A stretch of DNA of 64,000 bases from Schizochytrium sp. TIO01 (GCA_004764695.1 SMSO01000010.1:1-64000); one strand, 5' to 3'; positions 1-31,980 are shown, numbered from the stretch's first letter. Made by a program: numbers and translations. Notes: a model not told the origin generated them from the letters alone.

Positions 1-317
1 ACTACCCAAAACAAATGCCGGTTTGAAAACACCAAAACTCTTCATCATTATTACCTTTTCTTTCTCTGGACTCAAATAGCAAGCAAACATAATATTTGAA
101 GGGTCTTTTTTACTCACCGCTCTTGGTAGCGATAAGTATAAAGAACAGATGTCATAGCGCCGGTGACCAGCAAACACAACACAAGGTAAATGTTTCTGAA
201 TTGATTTATCTTAGGTGGCGGCATCTCTTCCTTTATTATTGGGTTTCGTCGCTTTAAAAAAAGGAGCACAAATTTATTTTGTCTTACAGAAGTTAGAGTT
301 ACTCAAAACCATACTTA

Positions 318-3236
318 TTGGATCTCATTATCATGGTTTCTACTACAGAAAAGTCTCAAGTATTTCAAAATGCTGTGAAAACAGCGGCAACAAACATGGG
401 TAAAGACAAGGCTGGAAGAGGATGCAACAAAAGTCTCGCGGCAGGTCGCCTGGGAGTGAAAGTTGACTGTCCTGACATGGCTCGTTTCGCACCAAGCGAC
501 AGGTCCAGCAGGTACACTCCTTTGCATGTAGATCGTCGCTTCGAATTTGCTGATGCAGAGAGTTTCGACTGGGGTACAGTGAACATGAGCAACGAAAAAA
601 CCATCAACCACCCTGCAGTTGATGAGGAGCACCCCTTTCTCACCCAAGAAATGTTCATGGAGGACCGCGATTCCTGGCTCACCGAAAACGTCGTGAAGAA
701 TGGAAAGCTACCTAAGGGCATGCGATACGCAGTTGACTGGCGCTACATTGGTGGCATCCCGCCAACTGCAAACGGACAGTTCAAGGAACGCTCTATTCGA
801 CGCTGGGTGCGGCCTGTTCAGACCAGCCAGTGCGGCAGTATCTGCACGCTCACAGGCATGCGCCAAGAAATGAGCTTGCATCGCTGTGCGCAGCTCGGTG
901 AGATGAGTCGCCACCGCAAGATTGCTAACGTACCCTACCTCTACACCAACCACTATAAGCACAAGTTCTACTACGCCAATTCTTACCACACCCAGCTAGC
1001 AAAGGACAATTTTGTGCGCGTAGGAAACGAGATTGTCAACGAAGATGACCCGCTAGAGACCTGGGTTGAAGTTAAGACAGACGAAGAAACAGGCGAGCTT
1101 ATCAATTATGACTACGCTCTCGACACCGAAGGCCAGAAGGCAGAGCGCAAGCTTGTGCAGTCAGTGGACAACGTTCTCAGCAAGGAAGAATTTAATTGGC
1201 CATCGAAGCGCGATGACCCCAAGGCGCAAGCTTCCCAGGTCTACACCAGTAATAAGGTCGATCCTTACTTTACTAAATTCGTAGACGAAGACTACAAGGT
1301 CCCTGATGGCCTGCAAATTGGCTCGGAAAAGGTCGACATCGAGGACTGGGTCCACCTTGCTCCTTACAACCCAGTGGGCAACTGCGCCGATCCATCCTGG
1401 AACCGCTACCGCAAGAGCCTGAAGAACTGGCGCAGCGACGGAAAGAATAAGTGGGGAGGCGGCAAGAATAAGAAGGGTGTCACACCTATTGAACTTCTGG
1501 CTTACAAGGGTGATGGCAAGTGGGAGCGCCACTTCCAGTCTAATAAGAAGGTTCGGAAGCAAGCACCTTTCAAGTCAGCTAAAGAGTTCGGAGGTGCAGT
1601 CGGTGCTACAAGTATGACTCGCAACTACAATTGGTCGTGGAGCACAAATGGCCGCACGCGCGAAAACCAGTACTCTATCCATTCTCCACTCTACGTCTGT
1701 AAGAACCAGGGAACCTTTTTGACAGGAGAAATGGCAGAAGCTTCACCAGCTATCTTCCTTGCCTGGGTACTTGATAACTACGGACCCGTGGTGCATTCGT
1801 TCGCTAATAGCACTTCTGGTGATAACTTTGCTGAACACTGGCGCCTCTCGGGAGGCACCATCAAGGAACTTGGCAAGATCCTCTACCCAGAGCTCATGCT
1901 CACCGGTTATAATGATGCAGTCGACCGCGCAGTCCGCGCCTCTCTCGACGGCTACACTACAGCAAACTACCTGAAGGGCGACGACATGCGCGCAGGTACT
2001 AACAGCGGACACACCTGTGTTTGTGTTGGTTATTACTTCTTGCCGGACGCCAAATCTTATGTCACCGATGAGGAGTCAGGAGAAACTGTGCTGCGCGATG
2101 ATCCTCAAATGGTATTTATTTACATGAATTCGCACTTTAACGCAGGAACTTTTCAAGGCATGCGTGGGTTTATCGTGCGCACAATGAGCCTCACGCACGG
2201 TGTGCTGGGTATCAACGAACTTCGCACAGGAATTCACCTCTGGAACCCAGAGGGACGCCCCATCAAGTACTTCTATGACGGCACTGCTTATGTCCCTGAC
2301 TCGCTGCCGCAGCACGCTGGTGGCTCTAACGAAGTCCGTGGTCTCTCGCCCTATGATTGGCGCCAGACAATCGACTACGATCAGTCTGGTCGCACGCGGG
2401 AGTTCGTCAAGGAAATGCGCCCCGAAGCTAGCTCAGAAGACACTAAGATGGACCGCGAAATCTTCGAACCACCCAAGTTCACTGCACGAGTTTCATCGGA
2501 GTATGACGGGTTCTTCGTATCACCAAACACACAGTGTGAAGGCAGCAAAGCCACCAAAACTTACCGCAGCACTGCAAATCTCGATAAAAAGATCAAAAAC
2601 TGCAAGGGTAAGTGCAAGTTTGTAGAAGTTGATGAAACAGCCAACACAGTCAAATTCTACCAATCCTGTGCACTTGCAAATGACGACACAGGCACAACCG
2701 TTTATGTAAACAACGACGTCAAGGACGCTCGCTCCCAGAACGGACTGCAGCGCACTATTGTTGACCAATATTATAACAACTTTCGCAGCATCTGCCGCTT
2801 CCAGCGAGGACCCTTCCCGGAGCACATCGAAGGATACCACACCGCAAATGGCCAGGGAGTCGAAGAAGTTATCAAGGAGGTCAGTGCTAGCACTGCAGAG
2901 AATTGCGCAACGAAGTGCAACGAGGACGAAAAGTGCACTCACTTCACCTGGGATGCAAGCTCACGCATGTGCGAATTCGGAACCGGACTCTATGCAGCAA
3001 CGCGCCGATCCTCTGTAAACCGCCCCACTTATGTAAAGTTCTCAAAGGATACCCCTATGACCAGTCCTCCTGTAGTGACAGGACCTCCTGAGGAGGAAGT
3101 CGAGGAAGAACCGGAAAGCGAAGACGAAGAGGTGAACGAACCTTGGATCGACGAGCTCAAGGAAGAGGTTGAACAAGGCGTCTGTGACCAAGAAGATATC
3201 GCCGAGGAGGAGGACGAGGAGGAGCCAGAAACCTGA
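318..3236 (+). CDS. Papain-like (C1A) cysteine peptidase with large insertion, C-terminal PAN/Apple domain(s) and acidic tail (ATG start probably 333 or 396)
   Basis: Papain motifs in order: LP..YAVDWR, VRPVQTSQCGSIC, YGPVV, GHTCVCVGY (catalytic His), YMNSH (catalytic Asn). PAN-like CATKCNEDEKCTHFTWD...C near the C-terminus. Confidence 0.75.
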   Translation: MDLIIMVSTTEKSQVFQNAVKTAATNMGKDKAGRGCNKSLAAGRLGVKVDCPDMARFAPSDRSSRYTPLHVDRRFEFADAESFDWGTVNMSNEKTINHPAVDEEHPFLTQEMFMEDRDSWLTENVVKNGKLPKGMRYAVDWRYIGGIPPTANGQFKERSIRRWVRPVQTSQCGSICTLTGMRQEMSLHRCAQLGEMSRHRKIANVPYLYTNHYKHKFYYANSYHTQLAKDNFVRVGNEIVNEDDPLETWVEVKTDEETGELINYDYALDTEGQKAERKLVQSVDNVLSKEEFNWPSKRDDPKAQASQVYTSNKVDPYFTKFVDEDYKVPDGLQIGSEKVDIEDWVHLAPYNPVGNCADPSWNRYRKSLKNWRSDGKNKWGGGKNKKGVTPIELLAYKGDGKWERHFQSNKKVRKQAPFKSAKEFGGAVGATSMTRNYNWSWSTNGRTRENQYSIHSPLYVCKNQGTFLTGEMAEASPAIFLAWVLDNYGPVVHSFANSTSGDNFAEHWRLSGGTIKELGKILYPELMLTGYNDAVDRAVRASLDGYTTANYLKGDDMRAGTNSGHTCVCVGYYFLPDAKSYVTDEESGETVLRDDPQMVFIYMNSHFNAGTFQGMRGFIVRTMSLTHGVLGINELRTGIHLWNPEGRPIKYFYDGTAYVPDSLPQHAGGSNEVRGLSPYDWRQTIDYDQSGRTREFVKEMRPEASSEDTKMDREIFEPPKFTARVSSEYDGFFVSPNTQCEGSKATKTYRSTANLDKKIKNCKGKCKFVEVDETANTVKFYQSCALANDDTGTTVYVNNDVKDARSQNGLQRTIVDQYYNNFRSICRFQRGPFPEHIEGYHTANGQGVEEVIKEVSASTAENCATKCNEDEKCTHFTWDASSRMCEFGTGLYAATRRSSVNRPTYVKFSKDTPMTSPPVVTGPPEEEVEEEPESEDEEVNEPWIDELKEEVEQGVCDQEDIAEEEDEEEPET

Positions 3237-3278
3237 AGAACTACTATTTTTTGTTAATACTTCTTGAATGCCCAGACT

Positions 3279-4370
3279 ATGATTAAAGCACAAGTCATCT
3301 TACTCGCGCTCAGCATCTTCATAGTTCTTACTGGAGCTGGACTTCTCATAGCTGGACAAAACATTACTAGCAGCAGGTCACTTGCAAGTGAAACAAGCGA
3401 AGCTACGACCAGTGACACTAGCACAACCAGCAGTTCTACAGAAGCATCTACTACTACTGCTGCTGCTGCTACGACCACTACTGCTGCTGCTACGACCACT
3501 GCTGCTGCTGCTACGACCACTGCTGCTACTGCTACAACCACTGCTGCTGCTACGACCACTGCTGCCCCAGTAGCAAGTGTGTGCAAAGTGATTGACGCAA
3601 GTCTAACACTCTGTGCTGGTGATGTCTATAAAATTAAAGACACACAGTTGGCTTCAAATGGACAGCAGCGGTACATGGAATATTCCAGCGACTGGAATGC
3701 AGGCTTACAAGGAAGCTGGCGTTATATCACTCTTTCAAGTGCAACAAACCCACAAGAGGACATGCAAGAAGTGACAATTAATATTACTGATTACGGAGTG
3801 CACTTTCTTGCTCCAAGCCTGGGCTATTTTATTGATGCGTCAATTGCTTATATTTATCAACTAGCAATTCTGAGAAACGTAGATGCCATAGAGACCAACG
3901 CTTTCAACGTTAGTTCTAACAACGGCGCTTACAGCATCAAGAGTTCCACCAGAAATAATTGGATACAACGCTACTACTCAAATAACAACATCGGATACGG
4001 CTCCGCGGGCAGCGATGCCTCTCTAGCAAACAGACGATGGACCTTTGAGCCAGTCACTCTCATGAGTCGCCAAGGAGCAAGGTTTGTTACTGACTCTAGC
4101 GAAGCAAACGACGAAGAAAACAAACAAAAGCTCAGAAGTACCTTCCTTATTTCAGGAGGTGTAATCGCTGGACTAGGAGCCCTCTCTCTTATTGGCTCAA
4201 TCGCGTGGATCATGATCACAGAAGACAAAACGCGACCACCACAGGAACAGCCACAACAGCCACAACAGCCCAAACAGCCCGAACAACCCAAACAAGGAAC
4301 CCAGAGCGGGTACATTGCGGCCCAAAAATCCTCGGCGCAAACATCTTTGCCAGGCGTAAGAATGTTTTAG
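3279..4370 (+). CDS. Double-hydrophobic-anchor membrane protein with Thr/Ala stalk and beta-rich domain (family member 1)
   Basis: N-terminal hydrophobic segment, SSRS, Thr/Ala repeats, CKVIDASLTLCAGDVYKIK, C-terminal TM. First ATG at 3279 (ORF track starts at TTG 3264). Confidence 0.85.
   Translation: MIKAQVILLALSIFIVLTGAGLLIAGQNITSSRSLASETSEATTSDTSTTSSSTEASTTTAAAATTTTAAATTTAAAATTTAATATTTAAATTTAAPVASVCKVIDASLTLCAGDVYKIKDTQLASNGQQRYMEYSSDWNAGLQGSWRYITLSSATNPQEDMQEVTINITDYGVHFLAPSLGYFIDASIAYIYQLAILRNVDAIETNAFNVSSNNGAYSIKSSTRNNWIQRYYSNNNIGYGSAGSDASLANRRWTFEPVTLMSRQGARFVTDSSEANDEENKQKLRSTFLISGGVIAGLGALSLIGSIAWIMITEDKTRPPQEQPQQPQQPKQPEQPKQGTQSGYIAAQKSSAQTSLPGVRMF
3448..3566 (+). repeat. Coding tandem repeat (~21-nt GCTGCTGCTACGACCACT-type units) encoding the TTTAAAA stalk
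   Basis: Directly visible near-identical units. Confidence 0.85.
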
Positions 4371-4404
4371 TAGAAATCATTATCATCAGATAGACAAACA
4401 CAGA

Positions 4405-5346
4405 ATGGACGAAACACCCCTAGATAAACCGCCTCATTCAAAGTTAAAACTTATCTCTATCTCGCTCCTGGCAGGCGGAACTATCGCTACTCTAACTGGA
4501 GCCATTGTCATTGGAGTTGGTCAAACGCAACAAAGCCGGAGCACGATAGAGGATGTCACAATCCCAATTACCACGGAAACAATTACAACAGCAGCTGCGA
4601 CGACAACTCCCGCTGTTACAACAACTAGCACCACCGAAACAACAACTGCTGCAGTCGTGACCATAGGACCAACGGCTCCCATCAGTAGCGACTGTTTTCA
4701 AGTCAGCAAGTTTACAACCTTCTGCTCCGGAGATACATTTAAGCTACACCATTACCTCTGGACAGAAAGAAATGGAGTCCAAAGCTTTCTTCAAGCCGCA
4801 GAACCCAAAGAATTAGATGGTTTCGGAGAAATCCAAACCCTGGAAATCGGAACCGCCCAATCCGACTCAGATAATAGACAACTGCTTCGACTCGAAGCCC
4901 GATCAGAAACACCAGTTGATCTCACCTGGAACCTATATATTAGCAACGGATTCCTCGCCGAATCCTCAGATTATTTAAACAAAATCTCGCCATTTGTAGT
5001 GCTGGACAAAGATAGAAACGATCCCATTCCTATTAAACTGGACTTTAAATCAGATGGGTCCGTGGATATCGTACACGGAAACACGGGCCAAGCCCTTGAA
5101 CTCGATACTCTGTTCGGCACTTGGTTGCCCCATTTCATAGATAAAACTACCGACACTGGCTTGTGGTATCTGATTCCACAAACTCTCGTTCCGAGGGCTG
5201 GCACAGTGCAAAACGCCAGTAGTTCAAACAAGGCACCAATCATTGTCGGGGCTATCTTATGCGGACTCGGAATTACCGCTCTAATTATAGGAGCAATTCT
5301 ACTCAAAAAATCAAATACACAAGTGCCTCAAGAAAACGGTAACTAG
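4405..5346 (+). CDS. Double-anchor membrane protein (family member 2)
   Basis: N-terminal TM, QSRS, Thr-rich stalk, CFQVSKFTTFCSGDTFKLH, C-terminal TM. Confidence 0.85.
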   Translation: MDETPLDKPPHSKLKLISISLLAGGTIATLTGAIVIGVGQTQQSRSTIEDVTIPITTETITTAAATTTPAVTTTSTTETTTAAVVTIGPTAPISSDCFQVSKFTTFCSGDTFKLHHYLWTERNGVQSFLQAAEPKELDGFGEIQTLEIGTAQSDSDNRQLLRLEARSETPVDLTWNLYISNGFLAESSDYLNKISPFVVLDKDRNDPIPIKLDFKSDGSVDIVHGNTGQALELDTLFGTWLPHFIDKTTDTGLWYLIPQTLVPRAGTVQNASSSNKAPIIVGAILCGLGITALIIGAILLKKSNTQVPQENGN

Positions 5347-5361
5347 ATACAATCAATTTGT

Positions 5362-5739
5362 TTATAGTGTAATTGTAAAGTCGATCTTTCTAAAGTCCTC
5401 TAGACTTGGAACTCTCTCCCCCCAACTTATTCTAAAGGAATTAAACCCCAGAGGAGATATAACAAAACCAAGTTCTTCTAAACGCCCCACTATCCTTTTC
5501 GAGCATTGTAAAACTAGTTTCTCTAGAATTTCGTTCCCAGCATAGTCCAATTTTTCGGAATAATACATCAATCTAATAAGGGTGTTCACCCCACCCCGTT
5601 GGGCAACATTTGTTATCAATTCTTCAATCGAACGCAGTTTCCACCGCAAATAATTTTCCAGTTCCTTGAGAATCAGAGCATTCACCTCGGCGGCGCTCAC
5701 TTTCAGTGCCGCGTCCATACAATCCTTGGCAGTAAACAT
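5362..5739 (-). CDS. Small viral hypothetical protein with L..LGF.I...F.ISW C-terminus
   Basis: ATG-started 125-aa ORF; C-terminus resembles that of 14207..14515. Confidence 0.6.
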   Translation of the reverse strand: MFTAKDCMDAALKVSAAEVNALILKELENYLRWKLRSIEELITNVAQRGGVNTLIRLMYYSEKLDYAGNEILEKLVLQCSKRIVGRLEELGFVISPLGFNSFRISWGERVPSLEDFRKIDFTITL

Positions 5740-6211: not shown

Positions 6212-9133
6212 ATGGCGGATGGCGCAGCAAGCCGGGCGTGGCCTTCTCCACTTCACGATGTCCTCGCCAGCTATAAGAATGCGGAAAGCGCCGTGAAAGA
6301 GCTAACCAAAGATATCAACGATTTTTTGAAGATACTGAGAAGCGATGAGAAACTCAGCGAGCGACGAATTAAGATGTATGAAGAATCTTTGCAACAGACA
6401 CGGCTACAGTTGAACGAGGCACGAGATGAGCGGGATAACCTGAAGAGTTTTTATGCGGTGCTGTCACCGATCTCTGAGACCCTGGATGATACGTATCGGC
6501 ACATCAGAGACAACCCTAGACTATTCCTCGAACCCGTGCCAGTTTTCACGCCCGAAGGGAAGTTCGCGGAGCTTTTTCGCCCCGACGTCGGCATTCCGCT
6601 AAATCTCGCCTCCGGTAGCCCAGCCCCCGATTTCCTCACTCATGATCTTTTGGGGCGTTTTAACGAGAATTTCAAAAACTTTGACGAAATTGTTTCCGGT
6701 AATCACCAAACACTCATGAGCTTTTACGGCACCTCGGGCGCTGGAAAGACGAGATTGATTTTTGAGATTTTTGCTCGAAGCTACGGACTGTACTTCGTTG
6801 CTGCTGACAGCGCTACACTCAACCCAGGCAGCAGCGATATCGCAAGTCTTTACTTCGAGTTGGGGCGCTTTGTCAAAGAATCCACGCCACTTGAAAATGG
6901 TGAGCTTGCAAACTTCTACACAATCGCTCTGATATTCTGTAGACTGCTGGTTTTCTGCGCACTCAAGCACGCCCTCGGCACACATGGAAAGGTGCCTTCC
7001 GAGGAGCTTTGGCTTCGCGTACAGCTCGCACCACGGTACTACTTCGCTGGGGATGTGTTTAACGCACTGTTTTCTACACTTATTTCTGGCTTTAACGAGG
7101 ATTTGAGTATCTCAAACGCTGCAGAAGAACCTCGTCGTATACTGAAGAAATTAAAACCCATCTGGCGAAACATCCGTGACTTAGTTGAAGGTATCAAGTT
7201 TAATGTAGCCTTTGACGAAACACAAGTACTAGCCAAGAAATTTGTGGGCTTTTTTCACTCCTCTGAAGACCAAGATGAGAGGCGAAGTTTGCTCTCTCCG
7301 GTCTCCAAAACACTCACGTCCATGGTAGATACTTACAAACTCATTAATCACCCCATTTTCTCCGGAACGGGTTTTTCTATGGTCCACATTACAACACAAC
7401 TGTCCAGTGCGTCTGCAAAAGATACAAAGAACCCATCTTTGCATTACAAATTTCCCTCACTAGGCACAGCTAGCGTTGAACAATATATTGGGACTATTCT
7501 GGACTTAGACCAACTGAATGAACATGTTGTTCAGTACACATGCAAATGGCTCACAGGAAGACCCAGGTGGACAGTTGCATTTTTAGATATTCTACTGGGG
7601 AGAGAACTTCAATCGAGTGACCCAGAAGACCTCAACACGAGCTTCATTCAAGAGATACGTCGCTTCGTCGAAATCATGACACACCCGAACGCTTTTGATA
7701 CTATACCAGAGAATCAGCGCGAATCAAGAGCATCCTGGCGTTATAAAGCAAACTCCACCGCACTGACTGCAATCAAACGGATCAATCAGAACAAAAAAAA
7801 AATCCAAGATTTCCAAGATTTCCTAGATGCGCTCGTAACGCATCTCTTTACAGACAAACCCGTTTGTTTAAAGAATAAATCTGCACAGAAACTGGTTGAC
7901 GACGGAGTCTGTCAAGTCAGTTCGGTAACGGTCGAGGCATCACGAAGAGGCTATGTCCCAGATGGATTCTTTGTCAAACTTGATGAACCTCTGGTGCTTG
8001 AAGCAGCACTACAGAACTTTCTTAAGGAGGGAACCCTCCTCGAGTTTGTTGTCAGCAAGATTAGGGAGACGGCTTCGCAAGACTATATGGAGTACTATAC
8101 CATGCTATGTGCTTTCAAACACATGAATTCTACACTAGATGTGGCGAAGCAAATTATTATTCAGGACCATTCTGATCGCCGCGAAATGTTGTTTGATCAT
8201 CTTGAAATGCCCAAAAGATCGTCATTCGGAAAATTGGTGCGCAATTGTAGCAGAGACCAACAGGGAACGCTGAAATGGTTATCGGAAATGAACGGGTTTG
8301 CCTCGGAGGGCTTGATGGATTTGGTCGAACCCTTTTGTTACCCATTCGATGATTTCGGGGCAGATGTGATAACGATGATGCGTCGCACAACGGTACCGGA
8401 TCTAGCTAGCGATGAAGCGTTCGTCCCAGTCTTGATGCAAGTAAAATATCCAAATCGCGGAGAAAACGAAGTGACCAGAAGGGAACAAAATAAAAAAGCA
8501 CTACTAAGTGTATTTCCGGATCTGGCTTTCAGGGCGAAAAGGGCCAAGTTTGGGGGCTGCAACGGAGAGCAGTTTCCCATGTTTCACTGGACCAACCACA
8601 ATAAAAGGAAATTTCTTGAAATCCTTTCCGTGTGCAAGGATTTCTTCCGCGTTGATGAGCTGAACTATGACGAGGCCACCCCGCAGCGAAGGGCCGAAGC
8701 TGATGCAGAATGTGCATACATCCATAACATTAGACAAAACCAGAAGGAAGAGGCAAAAAAAGAACGAGAACAAAAAATGAATGAGTTATTCAAACGGGAT
8801 TTGGATTGGAGAACACGCCGTCGTCCTGTGATCATGATGGTTTGCCAGACAGAAGAGGCGAGTGATTTTCTGACCTCCTTCTTGAGTCACTCAAGAGAAA
8901 AAGATGGCCCGAGGCTCATTGCGGAATCAGATTCGCATGAACTTAGCCAAAGAATCACACGTCTCCACTGTCAAGAGCGGAACTGTGAACGGGAAATCCA
9001 CGACATTGTTTTGTCCATTGATGCTCGTGATGATAATTATGTTGCACATGCTTTCTTCTCGAACAGCGATTTTATCACAATTGCACAAAACGCGGTCACA
9101 GAGTACAGAGGGCGCCGATTGGACCAGCGATAA
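6212..9133 (+). CDS. Crinkler-type P-loop NTPase with C-terminal restriction-endonuclease-like domain
   Basis: Coiled coil, Walker A GTSGAGKT, Walker B-like FDETQ, SGTG, LTGRPR, EP motif, and GADV...LMQVK (D-QxK nuclease-like). First ATG at 6212. Confidence 0.7.
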   Translation: MADGAASRAWPSPLHDVLASYKNAESAVKELTKDINDFLKILRSDEKLSERRIKMYEESLQQTRLQLNEARDERDNLKSFYAVLSPISETLDDTYRHIRDNPRLFLEPVPVFTPEGKFAELFRPDVGIPLNLASGSPAPDFLTHDLLGRFNENFKNFDEIVSGNHQTLMSFYGTSGAGKTRLIFEIFARSYGLYFVAADSATLNPGSSDIASLYFELGRFVKESTPLENGELANFYTIALIFCRLLVFCALKHALGTHGKVPSEELWLRVQLAPRYYFAGDVFNALFSTLISGFNEDLSISNAAEEPRRILKKLKPIWRNIRDLVEGIKFNVAFDETQVLAKKFVGFFHSSEDQDERRSLLSPVSKTLTSMVDTYKLINHPIFSGTGFSMVHITTQLSSASAKDTKNPSLHYKFPSLGTASVEQYIGTILDLDQLNEHVVQYTCKWLTGRPRWTVAFLDILLGRELQSSDPEDLNTSFIQEIRRFVEIMTHPNAFDTIPENQRESRASWRYKANSTALTAIKRINQNKKKIQDFQDFLDALVTHLFTDKPVCLKNKSAQKLVDDGVCQVSSVTVEASRRGYVPDGFFVKLDEPLVLEAALQNFLKEGTLLEFVVSKIRETASQDYMEYYTMLCAFKHMNSTLDVAKQIIIQDHSDRREMLFDHLEMPKRSSFGKLVRNCSRDQQGTLKWLSEMNGFASEGLMDLVEPFCYPFDDFGADVITMMRRTTVPDLASDEAFVPVLMQVKYPNRGENEVTRREQNKKALLSVFPDLAFRAKRAKFGGCNGEQFPMFHWTNHNKRKFLEILSVCKDFFRVDELNYDEATPQRRAEADAECAYIHNIRQNQKEEAKKEREQKMNELFKRDLDWRTRRRPVIMMVCQTEEASDFLTSFLSHSREKDGPRLIAESDSHELSQRITRLHCQERNCEREIHDIVLSIDARDDNYVAHAFFSNSDFITIAQNAVTEYRGRRLDQR

Positions 9134-9173
9134 AAATTGTTGCTGTTTCTACCTAATAAAGTAAAAAATCTCA

Positions 9174-11696: not shown

Positions 11697-11811
11697 TTTA
11701 CTTAAAGAGTAAAATCAACTTAAATCAAAATTAAAAGGAATTCGAAAGGGCTCCCTTAATTTTCTATTAAACCTATCAAGCAATAAAGTATAAATTCTTT
11801 ACTTGTCAATC

Positions 11812-21005: not shown

Positions 21006-21064
21006 AATTGGTTAAATGTTTGTGATCCTCAATTGATTTACTTATTAATGATTACAGAGGGTTT

Positions 21065-23795: not shown

Positions 23796-24297
23796 GATCC
23801 ATGCGAATATTGGCAGGCAAAAGCAAGTCCGGGCGATGGTAAGCGTCCATGCGCCCTAAAACAGCATGCGTGTTCCTCCATACATGCTGCTTATTCGGTC
23901 GAGGCAGAGAAATACCACCCCTGTACTGATTCATACGCGCAATAAATTGATTCGGGGACTCTTTCATTCGAGACTTCCACAATCGGTCGTGCGACGACTT
24001 AATTTGTTGCAACTCTGCATCAGGATTGCGCAGAAGAGGTGTTCTCAGGTTTTCTGGGGAGACCTCACTCGTGCGTGGCTCCAAACGCTGTGCCTCTTTT
24101 GCAAGAATCTCATCACTCCTTTGAACGTAAGAATGATCAATGTGCGCACGGCGGCGGCGATCCCGAAGAATCATTGTTCGCATTAAGAGATCCGAGTCTT
24201 CCTTCAACAAAGGAGCGCGCTGAATCGAGTTCTCAGCTTCTATCATTTCACGCATGCTCTGGGCGGCGTCGAGGTGCTGTGCAATAACTTTATGCAT
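23719..24297 (-). CDS. Hypothetical protein
   Basis: ATG-started 192-aa ORF divergent from 24400. Confidence 0.6.
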   Translation of the reverse strand: MHKVIAQHLDAAQSMREMIEAENSIQRAPLLKEDSDLLMRTMILRDRRRRAHIDHSYVQRSDEILAKEAQRLEPRTSEVSPENLRTPLLRNPDAELQQIKSSHDRLWKSRMKESPNQFIARMNQYRGGISLPRPNKQHVWRNTHAVLGRMDAYHRPDLLLPANIRMDHDIPVWYGAPDGRGGRQPFYYPASK

Positions 24298-24399
24298 TGT
24301 AAGAACAAATTGCTTCTACTCAAGTGCAGAGATAAGTTTTTTTATCTGGTTTCCTGCTAGGTACAAACTAGATTCATTGAAAACAAAATAATTACAAGG

Positions 24400-25284
24400 A
24401 TGCAAGCCGATTTAGATTTTTACATGGACTACGCCGACTCTCTTACATCCCACGGAGAGCCGTACAGGCCACTGGACACCGGAAACACATTCGGAAAGAT
24501 GCTCAAGGATAATCACAACTCGTTCGCGCAGCACAATCGGTCTAGGGCTCTCGAAAATAAGGTGCGCTCTCCAGGAGGCGAGGGTGCGGTAGCCCAAAAT
24601 TTACAAATGATGAAGTACGAATTGGGCGGAAACTCGATGGGCAGTCGCTTAATCCCGCCAAACTTCGAGCGCTACATTGAGTCGGCAGGAAATGTAACTG
24701 CACAAGGGGCAGCGGACGAGATATCTTGGGTCGATGAACTAGAAGGTAACTTTAGTCTACAGTTAGACGACCACATCGGAGGAGTCGCAAGTCAAATCAT
24801 GAACGCTAATATGTTTAACTCTCGCAACCCTGCACCTAATTTGAATCGCAACTTGCTCTATCCTTCAAATTATAGTAACTTTCAGCGTGATAATGATCAA
24901 CTCACTGATGAAATTGCGAACTCTTATCGCATTATGGCAAATAGCAATCAAAAAAGTGGAATGACTGGTGTGAAGCATCATCACAAATATAGACTTCCGC
25001 CCATTGGATACTCTTCAAGACGCCACGTCCCTGTCATGCAATTGCGCACTTCGCGCGAGAGCCGAAACGGACTCCACATGAAATCTACTCCCCGGCGACT
25101 TGATCCTATGCTGCAATTTCGCAGCAACGGGCCTATTCGCACAGATATTTTCGAAGACGAAGCGGATTATAACAAGTTCTTCGAACGCTCTAAAAGGGAA
25201 GGCTTCCTAGACGGACTCACACAAAACCTGGAGCCCAAGGGCGGGGCCTTGTCCTTTGAAACCGAAACATACGGCTACTACTAA
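24400..25284 (+). CDS. Hypothetical protein
   Basis: ATG-started 294-aa ORF, Asn-rich. Confidence 0.7.
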   Translation: MQADLDFYMDYADSLTSHGEPYRPLDTGNTFGKMLKDNHNSFAQHNRSRALENKVRSPGGEGAVAQNLQMMKYELGGNSMGSRLIPPNFERYIESAGNVTAQGAADEISWVDELEGNFSLQLDDHIGGVASQIMNANMFNSRNPAPNLNRNLLYPSNYSNFQRDNDQLTDEIANSYRIMANSNQKSGMTGVKHHHKYRLPPIGYSSRRHVPVMQLRTSRESRNGLHMKSTPRRLDPMLQFRSNGPIRTDIFEDEADYNKFFERSKREGFLDGLTQNLEPKGGALSFETETYGYY

Positions 25285-25335
25285 TTTTATCACAATAATC
25301 TTGTAAGATTCTTTCTCTAAAAACCTTTGTAAAAA

Positions 25336-26052
25336 ATGGGTCATCTCCTTACGAAACCAATCTCTGAATTTGATAAGCGCATTATGAAAATTGCTGCTGG
25401 CGTCTGTCTTTCCGCATCAATTTTAATGCTTATCGCAACCATTGCTTTGACTGTAATGGGCCACCTGGAAGTTCAAGCCACAGGAAGGACATCCTCGCGG
25501 AGCATCTTTAACGGAAGGAGCCGCAATAATGCCATTGTAGGCGTTTGCTCTGAGCTCTCCGCAACCGAAAACGTTTGCCAGAATGAATATAAATTGACTA
25601 CAGGCGATGGCGCCCTTTTCCCAGCTGGTCGCTACTTGAATGGAACTATGCTCACAACTGATCAAGAAAACAGTAACACAATTGCATTTGTTCCTGTGCC
25701 CTCAGAGAAGAGGAGAAGAGCATATTACATGATCGATGTAAATACAAAACTGGCATTTGCTTGTGGAGTGCCAAATGATCAATCTGACATCGGTGGTACG
25801 TGTGAATTCATCGAAGATCTTAGCTCTTCTTCTCATTTGACCGAGTGGGAATTTCATGAAACTAAACTTTCTAACTTCCGGCTTTTCAGGCTAGTTGCAA
25901 GGCCTGGTGTGCGCTGCAGCTCAGCCAACTGCCAGCTAGCAGAGCAATTCCAATATTATTTATCCTGTGATGAAACCACGTCTGAAAACTTTTGCAGCCT
26001 CTTCGTGGAAAAACAAGCCACATCTCTAGTTTTTGATCTCGAAAAGCAATAA
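25336..26052 (+). CDS. Cys-rich protein with N-terminal anchor and beta-rich ectodomain
   Basis: N-terminal TM, SSRS, CSELSATENVCQNEYKL, several Cys pairs; immediately upstream of MCP. Confidence 0.7.
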   Translation: MGHLLTKPISEFDKRIMKIAAGVCLSASILMLIATIALTVMGHLEVQATGRTSSRSIFNGRSRNNAIVGVCSELSATENVCQNEYKLTTGDGALFPAGRYLNGTMLTTDQENSNTIAFVPVPSEKRRRAYYMIDVNTKLAFACGVPNDQSDIGGTCEFIEDLSSSSHLTEWEFHETKLSNFRLFRLVARPGVRCSSANCQLAEQFQYYLSCDETTSENFCSLFVEKQATSLVFDLEKQ

Positions 26053-26189
26053 ATCTTTTTTTTTCTTTACTGAAAACTTGCAATATTTTGATACTCCTCA
26101 CAAAAGATTTGAAATGATCAAAATTTTTTATCTATACCCACAATTGTAATCAAATAATTGATTCATAAAACACAAAAACCCAAAGAACG

Positions 26190-27470
26190 ATGAGCTCTTC
26201 CAATGCAATCATTTATCAAATGTCCGCTCGCGGTCTCCAGGATGTTGTCACTCACTTGAACCCCGATTTGAGCCTCTGGCGCAAGAAGCACAAGAAGATC
26301 GCCAATTTTGCTATCGACGATCCTCACATTGATGCGCCTACTGCACGCTGGGGCCGAGAGGTTATCGGAACAATTCCTCGAGCTGGAGATCTTCTGCGCG
26401 ACATGCACTTGCAAATTGATATCAATCCTGTCCGACTTGCAGACCCTGGTCCCAATAACGACACTGTCAATTTTACCAATGTGCTTGGAAATTCTTGCTT
26501 TGAAGATGTTACACTTCGCATGGGTCACGTGACTATGGAACAAATTTATGGCCAGTACATCGAGCTGATGCACGAGTACGAGCACAATCGAGACAAGAAG
26601 CACGACAGCTATGTGATGCGCGCAGATAACAAGGAAGAGCTTATTGAGTGGAGTAACTACGGTAATGCCATCGATGCTGATGGAAACCGCGTCATTCGCC
26701 TTTTTATTAAGCTTCCTTTCTGGTTTACGCACAGCAATACACTTGCTCTACCAATTTGCGCTCTTGAGTTCTCAGTTATGCACATCGGAGTGAACCTTCG
26801 CCCCAAGCAACGCCTTTTGCAGTTCTCCAACCCTAACAACACCCGCCTTGATGAGCAGTTCAACGGAGAGATCAAGAAAATGGACTTTGTGCCTCAATTT
26901 GTTTATGTAGAGGACGCCGAGCGAGATGTCTACCTGAACAAGCCGGCAGAGTTCGTTATCCAGCAGTCTCAGCGGTCCACCTATCACGTTAAGGCACCTG
27001 GCCAGACCCGCCTTACAGTCGATCTTCAGTTTAACCACCCCATCAAGTACCTTCTCTGGGTTGTCCAGCGCGACGAGGCAATTCAAAACAACGAGTATTA
27101 TGATTACTCACTTACTGGATACGGTGACGACCCCTTCCTTAACTGTTCGCTTCGAATTAATCGCGCAGACCGCGTCTCTCGGCAGACTCCTGAATACTAC
27201 CGAATCTACCACCCTATTCAGTTCTTCCAGCGCAAGCCGGAGCGCCCCCAGTATTGCTTCAGTTTTGCAATGTTCGCAGACTCTAAGGCTTACATGCCTT
27301 CTGGTACTATTAATGCGTCTCGACTTGAGGATCTCTCCCTCGTTCTTGAGCTTCCCACTCACGACGGCAACGGAGAGCGCTTCGGTGCAGCCACAGTGAC
27401 CGTGTTTACTTCCTCATTCAACATTGTCTCTATTGCTGATGGCGCTATGCACATTCGTTTTGCTACCTAA
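26190..27470 (+). CDS. mcp: NCLDV double-jelly-roll major capsid protein
   Basis: ARGLQD...NP..SLW......NFA, WG....IPRAGDLL, KLPFWF...LALPICAL, FNHPIKYL.W, YCFSFA...PSGTINASRL, FN...I..G. Confidence 0.95.
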   Translation: MSSSNAIIYQMSARGLQDVVTHLNPDLSLWRKKHKKIANFAIDDPHIDAPTARWGREVIGTIPRAGDLLRDMHLQIDINPVRLADPGPNNDTVNFTNVLGNSCFEDVTLRMGHVTMEQIYGQYIELMHEYEHNRDKKHDSYVMRADNKEELIEWSNYGNAIDADGNRVIRLFIKLPFWFTHSNTLALPICALEFSVMHIGVNLRPKQRLLQFSNPNNTRLDEQFNGEIKKMDFVPQFVYVEDAERDVYLNKPAEFVIQQSQRSTYHVKAPGQTRLTVDLQFNHPIKYLLWVVQRDEAIQNNEYYDYSLTGYGDDPFLNCSLRINRADRVSRQTPEYYRIYHPIQFFQRKPERPQYCFSFAMFADSKAYMPSGTINASRLEDLSLVLELPTHDGNGERFGAATVTVFTSSFNIVSIADGAMHIRFAT

Positions 27471-27596
27471 GAAGAATCCCCATCTTTACAGACTTACGGG
27501 AAAGCCGATTTTTTTCCTTATGTTTTAAAACAATCCTTTCTTTATTTACATTTTTTGAATCTCCCATTTTATAGTTGGTTTTATTATCAATCAAAT

Positions 27597-28565
27597 ATGC
27601 AACACAACAGGAAATACAAAGCAGGAACAGCTTGTATTGGCACGGGAATCGGCTTGGCGGTTCTAGGGGCCACCCTTTTAGGAGTCAGTGAAAGTGTTCA
27701 AGCTCGCGCAAGTGACACTTCAACTAGCTCAACTTCTTCTGTGGTAACCACCACGACCCCCACTGCTACCACAACTGCGGCACCGACCACAACGGCCGCA
27801 CCGACCACTTCAGTTGCTGTTTCAACAGTGACTGTACCTATTCCAGATTTAACAACCGCACCTTCTGCTGAACCTGCACCAGATTGTGTGACTTACAGCG
27901 GAGCAAATCAAACGATCTGTTCTGGTGATGTCGTTCGCTTTAAATTCATGGGAACTGTAGAGTCTCCTACTTCAGGAGATCTCTATATGGAGCTATATGA
28001 CTATTGGTATGGCAATTCTACTTACGGAGATGGTAAACCAATTAATTATGGCTTAGATGACAGCAGCTCTGAGCTTCAGCAATTTAGGTTTGAAGTCAGA
28101 GAGGACACAGCAGAAACACAAACCTGGAATTTTGTTTATAAGGATACAGGCTTTCTCACTTATATTAGCAGTGAGGACCGGGCCTGGATTCGTACAGATA
28201 CAACAAAGGTACAACCAGTCCCCATGGAAGTAGTGTTTAAAAATAATGGGACTGTTGATCTGGTTGCTTACGGTTACAATAAAAGGCTGACCGCTTTATA
28301 CAGTCTTCGGCAGCAGCGAATAATGTGGACGGATTTGGGGTCGAGCGCCACTGGGCTGTGGAAAATGGAGTTTGTCTCAATGAGCGCTCGTTCCACAAGC
28401 ACCAGTGCAAGTGAGTCCAAGTCATCAAAAACAGGGCTTGTAGTTGCCGGAGCATCAGCTACAGCAATTGGGGTGGTTTTATTAATCATCGGCGTTGTGC
28501 TGGTCGCCAAAAATATGAATAATCCGAACGAGGGAGAACAAGAAATACAGATTTCTCAACTCTAA
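27597..28565 (+). CDS. Double-anchor membrane protein (family member 4)
   Basis: N-terminal TM, QARA, Thr-rich stalk, CVTYSGANQTICSGDVVRFK, C-terminal TM. First ATG at 27597. Confidence 0.85.
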   Translation: MQHNRKYKAGTACIGTGIGLAVLGATLLGVSESVQARASDTSTSSTSSVVTTTTPTATTTAAPTTTAAPTTSVAVSTVTVPIPDLTTAPSAEPAPDCVTYSGANQTICSGDVVRFKFMGTVESPTSGDLYMELYDYWYGNSTYGDGKPINYGLDDSSSELQQFRFEVREDTAETQTWNFVYKDTGFLTYISSEDRAWIRTDTTKVQPVPMEVVFKNNGTVDLVAYGYNKRLTALYSLRQQRIMWTDLGSSATGLWKMEFVSMSARSTSTSASESKSSKTGLVVAGASATAIGVVLLIIGVVLVAKNMNNPNEGEQEIQISQL

Positions 28566-28609
28566 GATATATTTATTTGCTTAGCTTGGTTAAACTTAGC
28601 TTCTTTTAT

Positions 28610-29026
28610 TTAGTACACACGGTGGTGTACCTTGTGCGCCTTGTGCTTGTGCGTCTTGCGCTTGTGCGTCTTGTGCGCCTTTGAAAGACCATGGCTGGCA
28701 CGCCACTCGGCCGCGATAACCTTAATGGTCTTCGGTGCGCTATGAGTGTGAGCATAGACCCGGCGAAAGTTAGCCTTTACGAATTGCTGGTAGTTATGCC
28801 CAGTATGAGGGTGTCTCCGCGCAGGAGTAGCGTGCTTGGTAGAACGACCATGCTTAAGAACCCAAGCCTTAGCAGTCATACGCATAGCCATCTGGGAATT
28901 GCCAGTGCGGGCAAAGTAGACCGGAAAATGGGCCTTGCGGAAGCGCTGATAAGCCAGCTGACGAGGGGAGAGCTGACGCGCTCCACCCGAGGCGTGCTTC
29001 TTCTTCTTGTGGTGGTGGACTGTCAT
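28610..29026 (-). CDS. Small His/Lys/Arg-rich protein with two HMG-box/YABBY-like repeats (putative DNA-condensing core protein)
   Basis: AYQRFRKAHF...MTAKAW and NYQQFVKANF...VIAAEW; almost no acidic residues. Confidence 0.7.
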   Translation of the reverse strand: MTVHHHKKKKHASGGARQLSPRQLAYQRFRKAHFPVYFARTGNSQMAMRMTAKAWVLKHGRSTKHATPARRHPHTGHNYQQFVKANFRRVYAHTHSAPKTIKVIAAEWRASHGLSKAHKTHKRKTHKHKAHKVHHRVY

Positions 29027-29248
29027 GATAATAATTTAAAATAAATTTACGATGAAAGTTTCAGTTATATAGTTACATAGAAAAAAAAATATAATAAAAT
29101 TTCAATCTATACTTTTTTTCTCTGTCAAACAGGTAGAGCAAACTTTGGAGGCCCACGAGCTTCCATATAGTTTATAAGGGCGTCCACCTTCACTTCGCTT
29201 TAAAGAAAGAAAGGAAGAAAAAGGAAGAAAGAAAGGAAAGAAAGAACA

Positions 29249-29761
29249 ATGAGCACCTCCAAATCGAAGAACAAGAATGTTGAGGTACAGCAAAATGAAG
29301 AAACAGATGTATCTCGCCGAAACCCACCTCGCAGGCGCGGCCCGCCTAAGCCAATCTATGAACCTGATCCTAACGTAAAATTCGAGGATGACTACGCAGA
29401 AGGCAGCGAAGATGACGAAGAGTTCGACTCTGACGAGGAAATGTCCTTTTCAGATGATGACGAAGAGGATTCTGAAGAGGATTCCTACAATTCTGAAGAT
29501 CGCGACTTTATTGCAGACAGTGACGAAGAAGAATCTGACGGCTCTTACACTGATGGCGATTTTGACGATTCAGGTGAAGGCAGCTCAGATGAAGACAGCT
29601 CAGACGAAGAAGAAGATTCCCACTATGAATCCGGTGATGACTTAGGCAGTAGATACTCTTCGCAGGATGAATATAGTTTCTCCGGAGATGAAACCAACGA
29701 GGACGAGGAAAGCAAGGTGTACAGCAGTGGCGAAGATACAGACCCTACAATGGATGATTAA
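29249..29761 (+). CDS. Highly acidic Asp/Glu/Ser-rich protein with basic N-terminus
   Basis: Composition; RRNPPRRR motif followed by long D/E tracts. Confidence 0.75.
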   Translation: MSTSKSKNKNVEVQQNEETDVSRRNPPRRRGPPKPIYEPDPNVKFEDDYAEGSEDDEEFDSDEEMSFSDDDEEDSEEDSYNSEDRDFIADSDEEESDGSYTDGDFDDSGEGSSDEDSSDEEEDSHYESGDDLGSRYSSQDEYSFSGDETNEDEESKVYSSGEDTDPTMDD

Positions 29762-29774
29762 ATTCTAAATCATT

Positions 29775-31088
29775 TTAAACAACCTTTAGAGATTTTGTTT
29801 TCTTCTTTTCATTTGGCTTCGGCTTCTCTTTGACAACTGACTCGCTTGCGGCAGGCGCAGCTTTCTGAGCAGAGCTGTCCTCTTTGCCATTCGTGCGCTT
29901 ATCCTCATTTCCCATCCTTTTAAGCAAGAAGTTGAGACCTATAATAAAACCAATTACCAGCACAGCCCCACCCACGATAAGAATGTACTTGATAGTCGAC
30001 TGCAGCGTGCGCGTAGTGAGTTCCAAATCATCATCTGATCCATTTGTAGAGTCACTGTTGTCTGTATCTGTACTTGAAGTCGTAGTAGCCTGACCTGTGC
30101 TTTCCCCGAAATTGCAATTAATAACTTGATCAATTGTTCCATTAATAATGATATTCTCCGACTCTGAAATATTAATAGCCGCTTCACAGGAGCGCACCGT
30201 ACAAGAAACATTCGAGCGATCAACTCTCATTTGATTGCTAACCAAAAACGCAGGGACCTCTCGCTGCTTACAAGGAAGCCACCAGCAAAAATCCGACGAA
30301 GCCGCAAAGGTATTCGAAGACATTAGAACATTGTACAGAGGCAACAACTCCCGCCCTACGCACATACAATCACTCGGAACAGAAGCATTGCCAGTTTTTG
30401 TAGGGTCGTAAGCATAACAGAACTGTCTGAGTTTCTCATCCACTGTTAGGGCATCATAATCAGTTAACCCAAGATGCATAAGATCTGTACAAGTTAAATT
30501 GTACTCCTCAGAAGCTGCTAATGTACAGAAGGAAGGTTTTGTACCATCTAAACTAGTCAAGCAATCAGGGCGAGTTTCCTCAATTGTGCAAATGCTAGCT
30601 TTGCTTTTAGGATTGTCAAGCTTGACGTGCCCAGAAACTGTTACATAGCGATCATCCGTAAGTTCGTAGTTTCCCGAAGTGTCCAATTGGTCACAACCTG
30701 GCCACACCCAGCACTGCACGCCACCCGGAGCAGAAGCGAGGTGCTTGTGGAAAGTATAGTAAGCCTCTGTAAGTGTGTCAGTACCAAGGACCTGGCGGTG
30801 CACCAATGCTTTGTTATACCTTGTAATTTCTGCTTCTGGGACATCTTTCGGATCCAGCTTGACCAGCTCGTTCGTGTGTGAAATCCAGTTATAAGCCTCC
30901 AAGGCACACACTGAAGCGCTTGTAATGCCTTCAATTCGATCAGCTGCAAAAGCATAATCCGCTTCCTCCCAAGTAACCCGACCTCGAGTGAGCCAAGGGT
31001 AGGCATCATCAAGCTTTGGGCAGCTTGTTCCGCGATCATGGGCGACCTGAATCGCAGAATAATGCGGTTCGGCGTCAATCGTACTCAT
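29775..31088 (-). CDS. Poxvirus A16/G9/J5-like entry-fusion membrane protein
   Basis: Cys-rich: DCMC...CWWLPC...SC...SC...INI...Q..NC, then Thr/Ser linker and C-terminal TM. Start probably MSTID at 31088 (ORF extends to 31217). Confidence 0.72.
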   Translation of the reverse strand: MSTIDAEPHYSAIQVAHDRGTSCPKLDDAYPWLTRGRVTWEEADYAFAADRIEGITSASVCALEAYNWISHTNELVKLDPKDVPEAEITRYNKALVHRQVLGTDTLTEAYYTFHKHLASAPGGVQCWVWPGCDQLDTSGNYELTDDRYVTVSGHVKLDNPKSKASICTIEETRPDCLTSLDGTKPSFCTLAASEEYNLTCTDLMHLGLTDYDALTVDEKLRQFCYAYDPTKTGNASVPSDCMCVGRELLPLYNVLMSSNTFAASSDFCWWLPCKQREVPAFLVSNQMRVDRSNVSCTVRSCEAAINISESENIIINGTIDQVINCNFGESTGQATTTSSTDTDNSDSTNGSDDDLELTTRTLQSTIKYILIVGGAVLVIGFIIGLNFLLKRMGNEDKRTNGKEDSSAQKAAPAASESVVKEKPKPNEKKKTKSLKVV

Positions 31089-31166
31089 CAAGAAAGGGAA
31101 AAAAAGAGACCTGGCCTCTTTAAAAATATCTAAAAGGTACATTGAAAAAAAAGAAACCAGCAGCCC

Positions 31167-31497
31167 ATGCACTATGGAATGACTGGGCATGTGTACTATA
31201 TAACCCGAGTAGCTCAAATGCTAGGGGTCAACGAGGAAACATTTTTTGAAGATTGGGTGGAGAAGTATGGTAAAAAGGGGGTGGATTGGAGCTTTAACAG
31301 GCCGAAGGAAAAACCCAGCGAGGTGCATACTATGCTAAGCGAAGAGTTCGTTCGTCGTGCATACTATGCTAAGCGAAGAGTTCGTTCGTCGATTGTTTCT
31401 AATTCACGAAAGGGAAACAAAAAAGACAGAATGTACTGGGTTCTTGCTTATGATGAATGGCGTTATTGAAAAATACGCAAAGTCAAGCAGTACTTAA
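31167..31497 (+). pseudogene. Frameshifted paralog of 10566..11696
   Basis: TGHVYYITRVAQMLG, GVDWSF and MLSEEFVRR match the intact paralog. After removing a 34-bp duplication the frame continues LFLI...FLLMMNGVI, matching LILR...FLLAMNDIV. Confidence 0.8.
31323..31390 (+). repeat. Perfect 34-bp tandem duplication
   Basis: GTGCATACTATGCTAAGCGAAGAGTTCGTTCGTC x2. Confidence 0.97.
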
Positions 31498-31681
31498 AAA
31501 ATAACCTTTATCTAAACATTTCAAGTTTGTTAAAAAAAACTTCTCAATTATTCTCTCCTCCTGATGACAAGTGAAAATCAGGGGCGCTTCTTGTTTTTTA
31601 AATTTTGGTTTCCTTTAAGCATTTCATTCATAGTGAAAGGGAATCCAGAAAACAAAGACAGAGTGAAAAAAAAGAAATAGC

Positions 31682-31980
31682 ATGGAGTTACTTTCCGCGA
31701 TAGAAAACGTGGTTAGAAAGGGCAAACTTTACGATTACGAGAAGCTGCTGGAGGTCTATACAAAGTATGGAAACCTATCCACAACTCAACGCATATACGT
31801 TCTTAACAATCCCGACGTGAAAAACGCACCTGATCGTGTGCAGGACCTCTGGCACCTCACAAATAGCAATTTTGGAGTGACCGATTTTGTCTATCATTTA
31901 GAACACGTAGCTGCCATTCTGGAGATTGAAAATTTGTTCAAATTTAGAGAGGAATGGATGAAAAAGCACGGTGAGGTGAG
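31682..31980 (+). pseudogene. 3'-truncated paralog of 10566..11696 at the virus/host junction
   Basis: VYTKYGNL...VLNNPDVKNAPDRVQDLWHLTN...FVYH aligns to the intact paralog until KHGE(V), after which similarity is lost. Confidence 0.8.

Follow-up and report, generated by a model that had tools for sequence, protein, structure and literature searches.

Gene content of the locus

A 64,000-nt stretch of DNA from Schizochytrium sp. TIO01 (GCA_004764695.1 SMSO01000010.1:1-64000), termed the window, comprises a gene-dense block of viral derivation (bases 1-31,980) and a right half (31,981-64,000) that is host chromosome. The block encodes a major capsid protein (MCP) of the double jelly-roll type, and the virus from which it derives probably belongs to the order Skiavirales, also named 'Ariadnavirales', judging from its MCP, one further gene, its gene content and its host. 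A prediction made from the sequence had described the block as an endogenous giant virus with a largely intact virion-morphogenesis module joined to protist host DNA.

The coding share is 88% in the block (29 non-overlapping open reading frames (ORFs) that begin with ATG and extend for at least 100 amino acids) vs 17% in the right half (8 ORFs), and simple-repeat bases number 14 to the left of 31,980 and 479 to the right. Both counts agree with the predicted abutment of compact ORFs on microsatellite-rich host DNA. The GC content is 45.1% on the left and 42.1% on the right, so that the composition changes without a sharp step and does not mark the border. The tRNA search found no tRNA. The principal features are as follows.

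1-31,980: virus-derived gene-dense block, its right end a truncation
31,981-64,000: host chromosome, with microsatellites, an ankyrin gene and a VWA-PAN-PT gene
26,190-27,470 (+): double jelly-roll MCP, intact, 426 amino acids (Pfam, tree, 33% identity to a named skiavirus contig)
12,520-13,119 (-): Erv1/Alr thiol oxidoreductase with a C-terminal hydrophobic segment (Pfam E 6.8e-23)
29,775-31,190 (-): Cys-rich membrane protein, likely of the A16/G9/J5 entry-fusion family (weak Pfam and PDB matches)
14,617-15,606 (+): Dam-like DNA adenine methyltransferase (PHROG 111 E 5.7e-12; Pfam Dam E 7.6e-5)
14,207-14,515 (-): small DUF5759-like protein, common to the window and a named skiavirus contig
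28,610-29,026 (-): basic protein of 138 amino acids rich in His, Lys and Arg, predicted from its composition to be a DNA-condensing core protein
13,240-14,103 (+): membrane-anchored protein, divergent from Erv1

The MCP matches Pfam Capsid_NCLDV (E 6.6e-30) and Capsid_N (E 3e-23), both above cut-off, together with 12 capsid sequences in the PDB; its copy in Logan differs by one residue. The Pfam matches of the MCP and of Erv1/Alr bear out their description as Nucleocytoviricota genes. The protein encoded at 29,775-31,190 likely belongs to the A16/G9/J5 family. Its matches to Pfam Pox_G9-A16 (E 0.027 for the whole protein and 0.008 for the Cys-rich part) lie below the curated cut-off, and the top match among 177,635 PDB sequences is poxvirus OPG104, a weak one at E 0.51. 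We take OPG104 to be J5. No homologue was found among 5.8 billion proteins, and a single-sequence model with a predicted local distance difference test score (pLDDT) of 37 was unusable. The matches point, all of them weakly, to the A16/G9-like gene of the original prediction. The basic protein gave no family match. We take the membrane-anchored protein at 13,240-14,103 to be thioredoxin-like by motif, a label without database support (no Pfam or PDB match).

An MCP, Erv1 and one A16/G9/J5-like gene are present but there is no packaging ATPase, and to call the module largely intact was an overstatement. No polymerase, A32 packaging ATPase or integrase was found by Pfam among the 29 ORFs, nor by tblastn of the window with 304 ORFs from contigs of related viruses (the clade contigs, see below), as had been reported. 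VLTF3, like A32, was not found in the window, which is the visible part of the element. An HK97 capsid, terminase and portal of the mirusvirus type were not found; one broken ORF gave a sub-threshold match to the Terminase_5 HTH. The double jelly-roll capsid does not fit a mirusvirus integrant of the AurliV-2 type.

Relationship to the Skiavirales

A phmmer search with the window MCP against 1.84 billion representative proteins returned eight proteins with 31-37% identity at 179-301 bits, over a background of at most 170 bits. One of the eight is labelled as the MCP of Durusdinium trenchii and another lies on a 188-kb contig filed as bacterial. A word-based search returned only the Logan copy of the MCP itself and matches at 21-29%. 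With about 36% identity at most to any non-self match among the 1.84 billion, the lineage is poorly sampled, as predicted. An alignment of four of the relatives retrieved IMGVR_UViG_3300020185_000043, whose MCP is 33% identical to that of the window at 282.5 bits (at most 170 bits outside the clade). This contig carries YqaJ, WLM, Herpes_ori_bp and PCNA, and in the available text of the preprint that describes the order (10.64898/2026.07.28.741200) it is named as bearing skiavirus genes, without a resolved genome. Metagenome loci are labelled L001-L022 here, and protein matches have P-labels. A second gene is common to the window and this contig, where the protein of 14,207-14,515 aligns with L004:10,085-10,420 (41% over 87 amino acids, E 9e-19); the L004 copy matches DUF5759 at E 0.005.

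In a quick tree of 95 rows the window MCP falls within a 10-row clade with an SH-like approximate likelihood ratio test (SH-aLRT) value of 100. A more careful tree was made from 41 rows, comprising the window, nine clade proteins, 11 MCPs from the loci and 20 outgroups selected from the matches. It has a 21-row clade with support of 100/100 that includes IMGVR_UViG_3300020185_000043, with the window in a seven-row subclade (96/94). This is the MCP phylogeny for which the original prediction had called.

The gene content of the window fits that listed for the order, namely MCP, Erv1/Alr, three A16/G9/J5 paralogs, DNA methyltransferases, glycosyltransferases and an MSV199-like domain (10.64898/2026.08.29.747986). 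DAM is described as a core skiavirus gene, and the 17-gene core of the Skiavirales includes A22, WLM, Herpes_ori_bp, PACI and YqaJ (10.64898/2026.07.28.741200, text available). No tblastn match to YqaJ, WLM, Herpes_ori_bp (UL9-like) or PCNA was found in the window, which holds part of the element only. The DNA and RNA polymerases were lost in the 'Ariadnavirales' (10.64898/2026.08.29.747986). The order lacks RNA polymerase, TopoII and mostly PolB, and is placed as sister to Mamonoviridae and Manesviridae by concatenated MCP-A32-VLTF3. No RNA polymerase, TopoII or PolB is present in the window, 32 kb being too small to prove absence; the lack of polymerases is expected because the order is mostly without PolB and RNA polymerase.

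Scans of IMG/VR with the window MCP, P0099 and Erv1 gave no relative, and a scan with P0095 gave no locus. In GTDB the match to P0095 is a single 2.7-kb contig. P0095 (MCH9712605.1; L001) is the clade MCP that lies on the 188-kb contig, filed as a proteobacterial metagenome-assembled genome (MAG) and probably a near-complete, misfiled skiavirus genome; the identical MCP occurs on the 2.7-kb contig, from another bacterial MAG. At least 15 further metagenome contigs (L007-L022), some of 10-21 kb, encode MCPs 50-57% identical to the clade member P0242. Metagenomes apparently contain more of the order than is represented by the two contigs that the available text of 10.64898/2026.07.28.741200 names. 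On the anchor contig, two adjacent Cys-rich membrane proteins of 650-680 amino acids without a Pfam match (L005:9585-11618 and 12073-14010) were observed, one of which begins Met-Gly. We presume that this pair may be fused entry proteins of the L1/F9 type.

The join to host DNA

The locus was compared with 22 sequencing runs (labelled X1, X2 ... X22), all as short-read contigs. Twenty of the 22 carry part of the interval 25,000-34,800, and 15 carry 0.76-0.95 of its words. These 15 strong holders come from six studies under seven organism labels and the years 2018-2025, with contig totals of 60-97 million letters (60-66 for 14 of the 15). Contigs of seven runs (X1, X2, X3, X7, X12, X16 and X17), among them five of the 15 strong holders, were aligned to the window. 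X1 is possibly the source of the window sequence, and was therefore counted apart where independence is concerned. X16 and X17, from two studies, are termed RNA-like; their RNA type is guessed, and no run is recorded as RNA. By the method's own caveat contig depth is not copy number, and a gap in the contigs proves neither silence nor deletion.

All three DNA-type runs aligned around ~31,980, which come from three studies, have contigs that bridge the join (two out of two if X1 is set aside). The bridging contigs run from 31,838 to 32,973 in X1 and X3 and from 31,932 to 32,808 in X12, with a depth like that of the flank. It is certain that the terminal remnant is attached to host DNA, and to this extent the predicted junction is real. 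The placement of the capsid stretch on one molecule with the flank rests on overlapping contigs that keep to the path of the window, which run from 24,883 to 31,270 in X3 and X12, together with the window assembly. A joint from 31,680 to 31,170 occurs in X1, X3 and X12, an alternative right end at 31,171 in two of the four runs examined (X1 and X16), and loose ends at 21,655 and 30,688 in X1 and X3. On the left the block extends beyond the window, with contigs of X2, X16 and X17 reaching 271-461 letters past base 1.

The original prediction had raised a depth step at the border as a sign of chimeric assembly. The depth of the long capsid-side contigs is about half that of the flank in X3 (15.5-16.5 vs 25.9-33.2) and X12 (54-55 vs 118-135), and 1.5 times that of the flank in X1 (559-581 vs 356-377). 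These values hint that some strains have the capsid stretch once per two chromosomes and that another has additional copies; they give a hint only, because depth is no copy number.

Multi-copy families and the truncated right end

Two multi-copy genes of the block, and the broken genes, are as follows.

6,212-9,133 (+): 973-amino-acid P-loop protein with a Walker A-like GTSGAGKT, member of a multi-copy family and likely a host-type or mobile passenger
10,566-11,696 (+): intact member of a multi-copy family termed MSV199-like (label unconfirmed)
31,167-31,980 (+): two broken members of the 10,566 family, of which the second is severed at the join to host DNA
18,195-18,665 (+): 5'-truncated remnant, 156 open codons with no start Met near the 5' end

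The gene at 10,566-11,696 is paralogous to the broken copies at 31.2 and 31.7 kb, with which it has a common upstream A-rich motif (D13). The first broken copy (31,167-31,469) lacks its 5' part and contains an exact 34-bp tandem duplication at 31,323-31,391. The second (31,682-~31,980) is 40% identical to the start of the intact gene, with the similarity ending at 31,981. The sequence GAG|GTGAGC at 31,977-31,985 is, we assume, splice-donor-like. It was rejected as a splice donor, no downstream exon of the 10,566-type family having been found in the window, and for this reason the right end is read as a truncation. No inverted or direct terminal repeat was seen among the repeats listed (the 20 largest of 42 direct families and 25 of 99 inverted pairs). 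We take the remnant at 18,195-18,665 to be glycosyltransferase-25 (GT25)-like by motif, without database support for the label. The three frames are broken where the original prediction had placed a broken GT25 gene and two broken MSV199-like copies, but neither label has a match in Pfam, PHROGs, NCBIfam, the PDB or the phage set.

The depth in the bin of the 10,566 family is 154 vs 14 in X2 and 966 vs 53 in X7. Its depth suggests some ten copies or more of the family in the host runs; it may be virus-derived, dispersed through the genome and acting as a recombination hub. The gene at 6,212-9,133 has a depth several-fold above that of neighbouring single contigs, with many loose ends, in X2 and X7, and a depth of thousands in the RNA-like X16 and X17. 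In layout its product presumably resembles NTPase-nuclease proteins of eukaryotic conflict systems, without a database match, and the gene may represent a thraustochytrid family of mobile or defence genes. Since both genes belong to families that are multi-copy in the host runs, the block is a mosaic. Membership of host gene families, which had been named as an argument against a viral origin, was found for these two genes.

Strain variation and transcription

The extent of variation differs along the block. In each of X2 and X7 one contig spans 14,228-19,900 and shows 0-1 differences, and 15,000-20,116 has no difference in X1 and X12. Bases 1-5,400 diverge by 2-3% in X2 and X7. In X1, X3 and X12 the stretch 20.1-25.3 kb is deeper than the capsid stretch, and its five ORFs are found as at least two sequence types; 27 of 40 listed differences in these ORFs are synonymous.

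Some block genes are likely transcribed. A relative of Erv1 with 93% identity is an MMETSP transcript, and X16 and X17 partly cover 1-5,311 and 9,121-14,055. Pieces of X16 over 20,203-25,271, 28,608-29,041 and 29,322-31,171 follow gene bounds, the second coinciding with those of the basic-protein gene. Contigs of X16 and X17 both end near 14.0 kb, where the DNA runs carry on, a weak hint that the middle of the block beyond this point is quiet. In X16, the one RNA-like run examined at the MCP, contigs are absent from 25,576-28,219 (which includes the MCP) and from the host bases 31,525-33,507, and almost absent from 14.6-20.2 kb; in X17 the interval without a contig is 13,945-19,900.

Remaining ORFs and the host flank

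The remaining features of the window are itemized here.

333-3236 (+): 967-amino-acid protein, likely a papain-like (C1) cysteine protease with a C-terminal PAN/apple domain (PAN_1 E 4.3e-7)
3,279-4,370 (+): membrane protein paralog 1, with terminal hydrophobic helices (N and C), a Thr-rich stalk and a predicted beta-rich domain
4,405-5,346 (+): membrane protein paralog 2, by paralogy
18,789-19,769 (+): membrane protein paralog 3, by paralogy
27,597-28,565 (+): membrane protein paralog 4, by paralogy
5,362-5,739 (-): 125-amino-acid ORF without a family match
9,174-10,262 (-): 362-amino-acid ORF without a family match, covered by X16 and X17 contigs
20,133-25,284: five unassigned ORFs (20,133-21,005, 21,065-22,882, 22,836-23,795, 23,719-24,297 and 24,400-25,284), covered by RNA-like X16
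47,457-48,950: host ankyrin gene
51,788-53,362: host VWA-PAN-PT-repeat surface protein

For the protein at 333-3236 the Atlas gave Peptidase_C1 with a score of 0.80, as a lead only. Within its gene, X7 has no contig on window bases 665-1,328, and the X2 and X7 copies have diverged by 2-3%. The four paralogous Thr-stalk membrane proteins are scattered across the block. A five-sequence model of them has a pLDDT of 43, a low confidence, and its top matches are mostly beta-trefoils with E values of at least 0.08; no fold match was found at E <= 0.001. The beta-rich domain is possibly a beta-trefoil. For the 605-amino-acid ORF in 20,133-25,284 the Atlas returned nothing. A short hydrophobic ORF at 19,848-20,084 (-), with two helices and located between larger genes, may encode a small virion membrane protein. 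A likeness of 5,362-5,739 to 14,207-14,515 was rejected since there is no alignment, and one of 16,024-16,644 to L005:8,553-9,146 was not borne out.

The best full-length match of the ankyrin protein is to Hondaea fermentalgiana (57%). This match, of one flanking gene only, indicates that the host is a thraustochytrid, as its sequence style had suggested. The PAN domain occurs both at the end of the block protease and in the host VWA-PAN-PT protein, a hint of domain exchange with the host. In the right half, 55,880-56,306 and 57,553-57,980 form a direct duplication (80-91% identical, ~1,673-bp spacing) within a CpG-poor, ORF-free stretch (52-60 kb, CpG observed/expected 0.56-0.71). It may be a decayed long terminal repeat element or a tandem duplication.

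Discussion

The prototype of the order termed Skiavirales (10.64898/2026.07.28.741200, text available) or 'Ariadnavirales' (10.64898/2026.08.29.747986) is SmDNAV (PMC8354545). The block resembles its members in the thraustochytrid host, the MCP clade, the Erv1/Alr and Dam genes, a likely A16/G9/J5-like gene, dense and largely intron-less coding without PolB or RNA polymerase seen in the 32 kb and, by motif labels that lack a database match, glycosyltransferase and MSV199-like genes. The known members are lytic virions or circular genomes of 190-252 kb, whereas this is a chromosomal piece of at least 32 kb, common to many strains, truncated and mosaic, with an MCP only 31-36% identical to those of other clade members. 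In the available text of 10.64898/2026.07.28.741200 all long-read skiavirus genomes are circular and the word stem 'integrat' is absent. Yutin et al. searched NCBI protist assemblies and described homologues as "either integrated or co-sequenced", the word 'integrated' occurring once in their text (10.64898/2026.08.29.747986). No description of this locus, nor a demonstrated skiavirus integrant, was found in the literature searched; the supplementary tables of Yutin et al. may list this MCP.

AurliV-2 of Aurantiochytrium limacinum (10.1101/2023.06.15.545109, PMC12606086) is likewise a large DNA virus in a thraustochytrid chromosome. From the portions of those reports available, its genes are expressed and it is a mirusvirus of the Duplodnaviria with an HK97 capsid and PolB, whereas the window has the double jelly-roll MCP of the Varidnaviria. 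The two A. limacinum elements of Collier et al. are described, in the accessible part of that source, as having no Nucleocytoviricota-like MCP and no similarity to SmDNAV (10.1101/2023.06.15.545109). The block is also like the giant endogenous viral elements of protists, described in the text available from Chlamydomonas (10.1101/2024.09.03.611062), Euglena (PMC12455990) and Acanthamoeba (PMC12210455), in which Nucleocytoviricota DNA lies in a chromosome in states from latent to eroded. The latent Chlamydomonas element is reported there to be 617 kb and to make particles (10.1101/2024.09.03.611062), while the part in the window is small and without core genes beyond the MCP.

We consider it probable, with some reserve, that the block is an inherited, partial and eroding fragment of a Skiavirales genome in a thraustochytrid chromosome, partly transcribed by the host. 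Three broken frames, a right end within a gene and strain-variable content are signs of erosion. Skiaviruses, mostly without PolB and RNA polymerase, are described in the preprints as persisting in culture as circles reliant on host nuclear enzymes. Such dependence would bring viral DNA into contact with host chromosomes, and the intron-poor genes would be pre-fitted for host transcription. No integrase would be needed to capture a piece: end-joining could do so, as could recombination at the dispersed 10,566-type family, whose broken copies would then mark the right end of the piece. During vertical inheritance, parts would afterwards have been deleted or partially duplicated and one multi-copy gene of host type (6.2-9.1 kb) added, which would have given a strain-variable mosaic; in several strains only one of the two chromosome copies probably carries the capsid stretch. 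Some genes would still be transcribed because their promoters were already of host type. Judged from the window, the block would not make particles alone.

Several points weigh against this reading. The end branch of the window MCP is long (0.89), and the MCP trees leave out SmDNAV, medusaviruses and manesviruses, so that the anchor to the SmDNAV-like clade is indirect. Only two of the 304 clade-contig ORFs match the window by tblastn. All the data are short-read contigs, none of those listed connects the MCP with the host flank, and a branched repeat (31,170-31,840) lies on the path between the two. Most ORFs are open and the MCP is intact. Coding differences were classed for 40 of 254 differences in one listing and 19 of the 40 listed of 868 in the other (13 intergenic ones and 8 in multi-copy genes being dropped). 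Of these 59 listed differences 39 are synonymous, against an expected share of ~0.33 for transitions (p 5e-7), and none creates a stop, which is not the pattern of neutral decay. By these differences the copies diverged under purifying selection, either in a free-virus stage or in the host. The integration had been called recent or maintained; the synonymous excess backs 'maintained', but it could equally date from the free-virus stage.

The same excess, without stops, is what would be seen if the host kept and expressed the membrane and entry genes under selection as a domesticated module, for example blunting related skiaviruses, with the capsid dispensable. The set would comprise the Erv1 pair, the A16/G9/J5-like protein, the Thr-stalk membrane proteins and the basic protein. 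The two or more sequence types of 20.1-25.3 kb, deeper than the capsid stretch in X1, X3 and X12, fit such a module, as do the RNA-like contigs over membrane and entry genes and the transcription of the 93% Erv1 relative in an MMETSP organism. We think it unlikely, since two related free viruses that diverged and were then captured separately would leave the same excess, the differences listed are 40 of 254 and 40 of 868, the protease gene lacks an X7 contig over its first half, and the function is predicted only.

The left end and upstream region lie outside the window and a complete provirus is possible. The block would then be the right end of a near-complete, inducible latent provirus with its packaging ATPase, transcription factors and recombinase upstream. 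The intact MCP, nearly invariant between runs, the identity of 14.2-20.1 kb across studies, an order that needs no polymerase and the contigs that reach past base 1 are consistent with this. Yet the right end lies within a gene and no terminal repeat was seen among those listed, some genes are broken, a host-type multi-copy gene lies inside, strains differ in content, and YqaJ, WLM, the UL9-like protein, PCNA and A32 are all missing from 32 kb. Two of 304 clade ORFs is also few for genomes of 190-252 kb. The latent provirus that had been suggested is thus weakly supported, and we regard it as improbable. An episomal or co-cultured skiavirus might instead have been joined to the flank by assembly, the repeated family at 31.2-32.0 kb serving as the bridge; the terminal remnant alone would then be chromosomal. 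This reading would accord with the circular long-read genomes (10.64898/2026.07.28.741200, text available), the change of depth between 31.3 and 31.8 kb and the branched region with no listed contig from MCP to flank. It is made very improbable by the X3 and X12 contigs from 24,883 to 31,270 that keep to the path of the window, by the roughly halved depth found independently in two studies, and by the broken genes, the strain-specific gaps and the host-type multi-copy gene inside.

What is new here is an MCP that groups in a 100/100 clade with a named skiavirus contig, together with a second common gene. There is a small chance that the locus represents more, namely the first chromosomal integrant of the Skiavirales, from a deep unnamed branch, with membrane and entry genes selected and host-expressed as an inherited cassette and the capsid on some chromosome copies. 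The Skiavirales were defined in 2026, and the text available leaves undecided between inheritance with the cell and re-infection (10.64898/2026.07.28.741200). A chromosomal copy in many strains would mean that at least part of a skiavirus genome is inherited in the germ line. The locus would add a divergent MCP branch to the order, and a third viral lineage to a host group already known for two mirusviruses. The host is a transformable, industrially grown protist, and its natural presence, absence and copy variation of the element would make silencing, erosion and co-option of entry genes testable.

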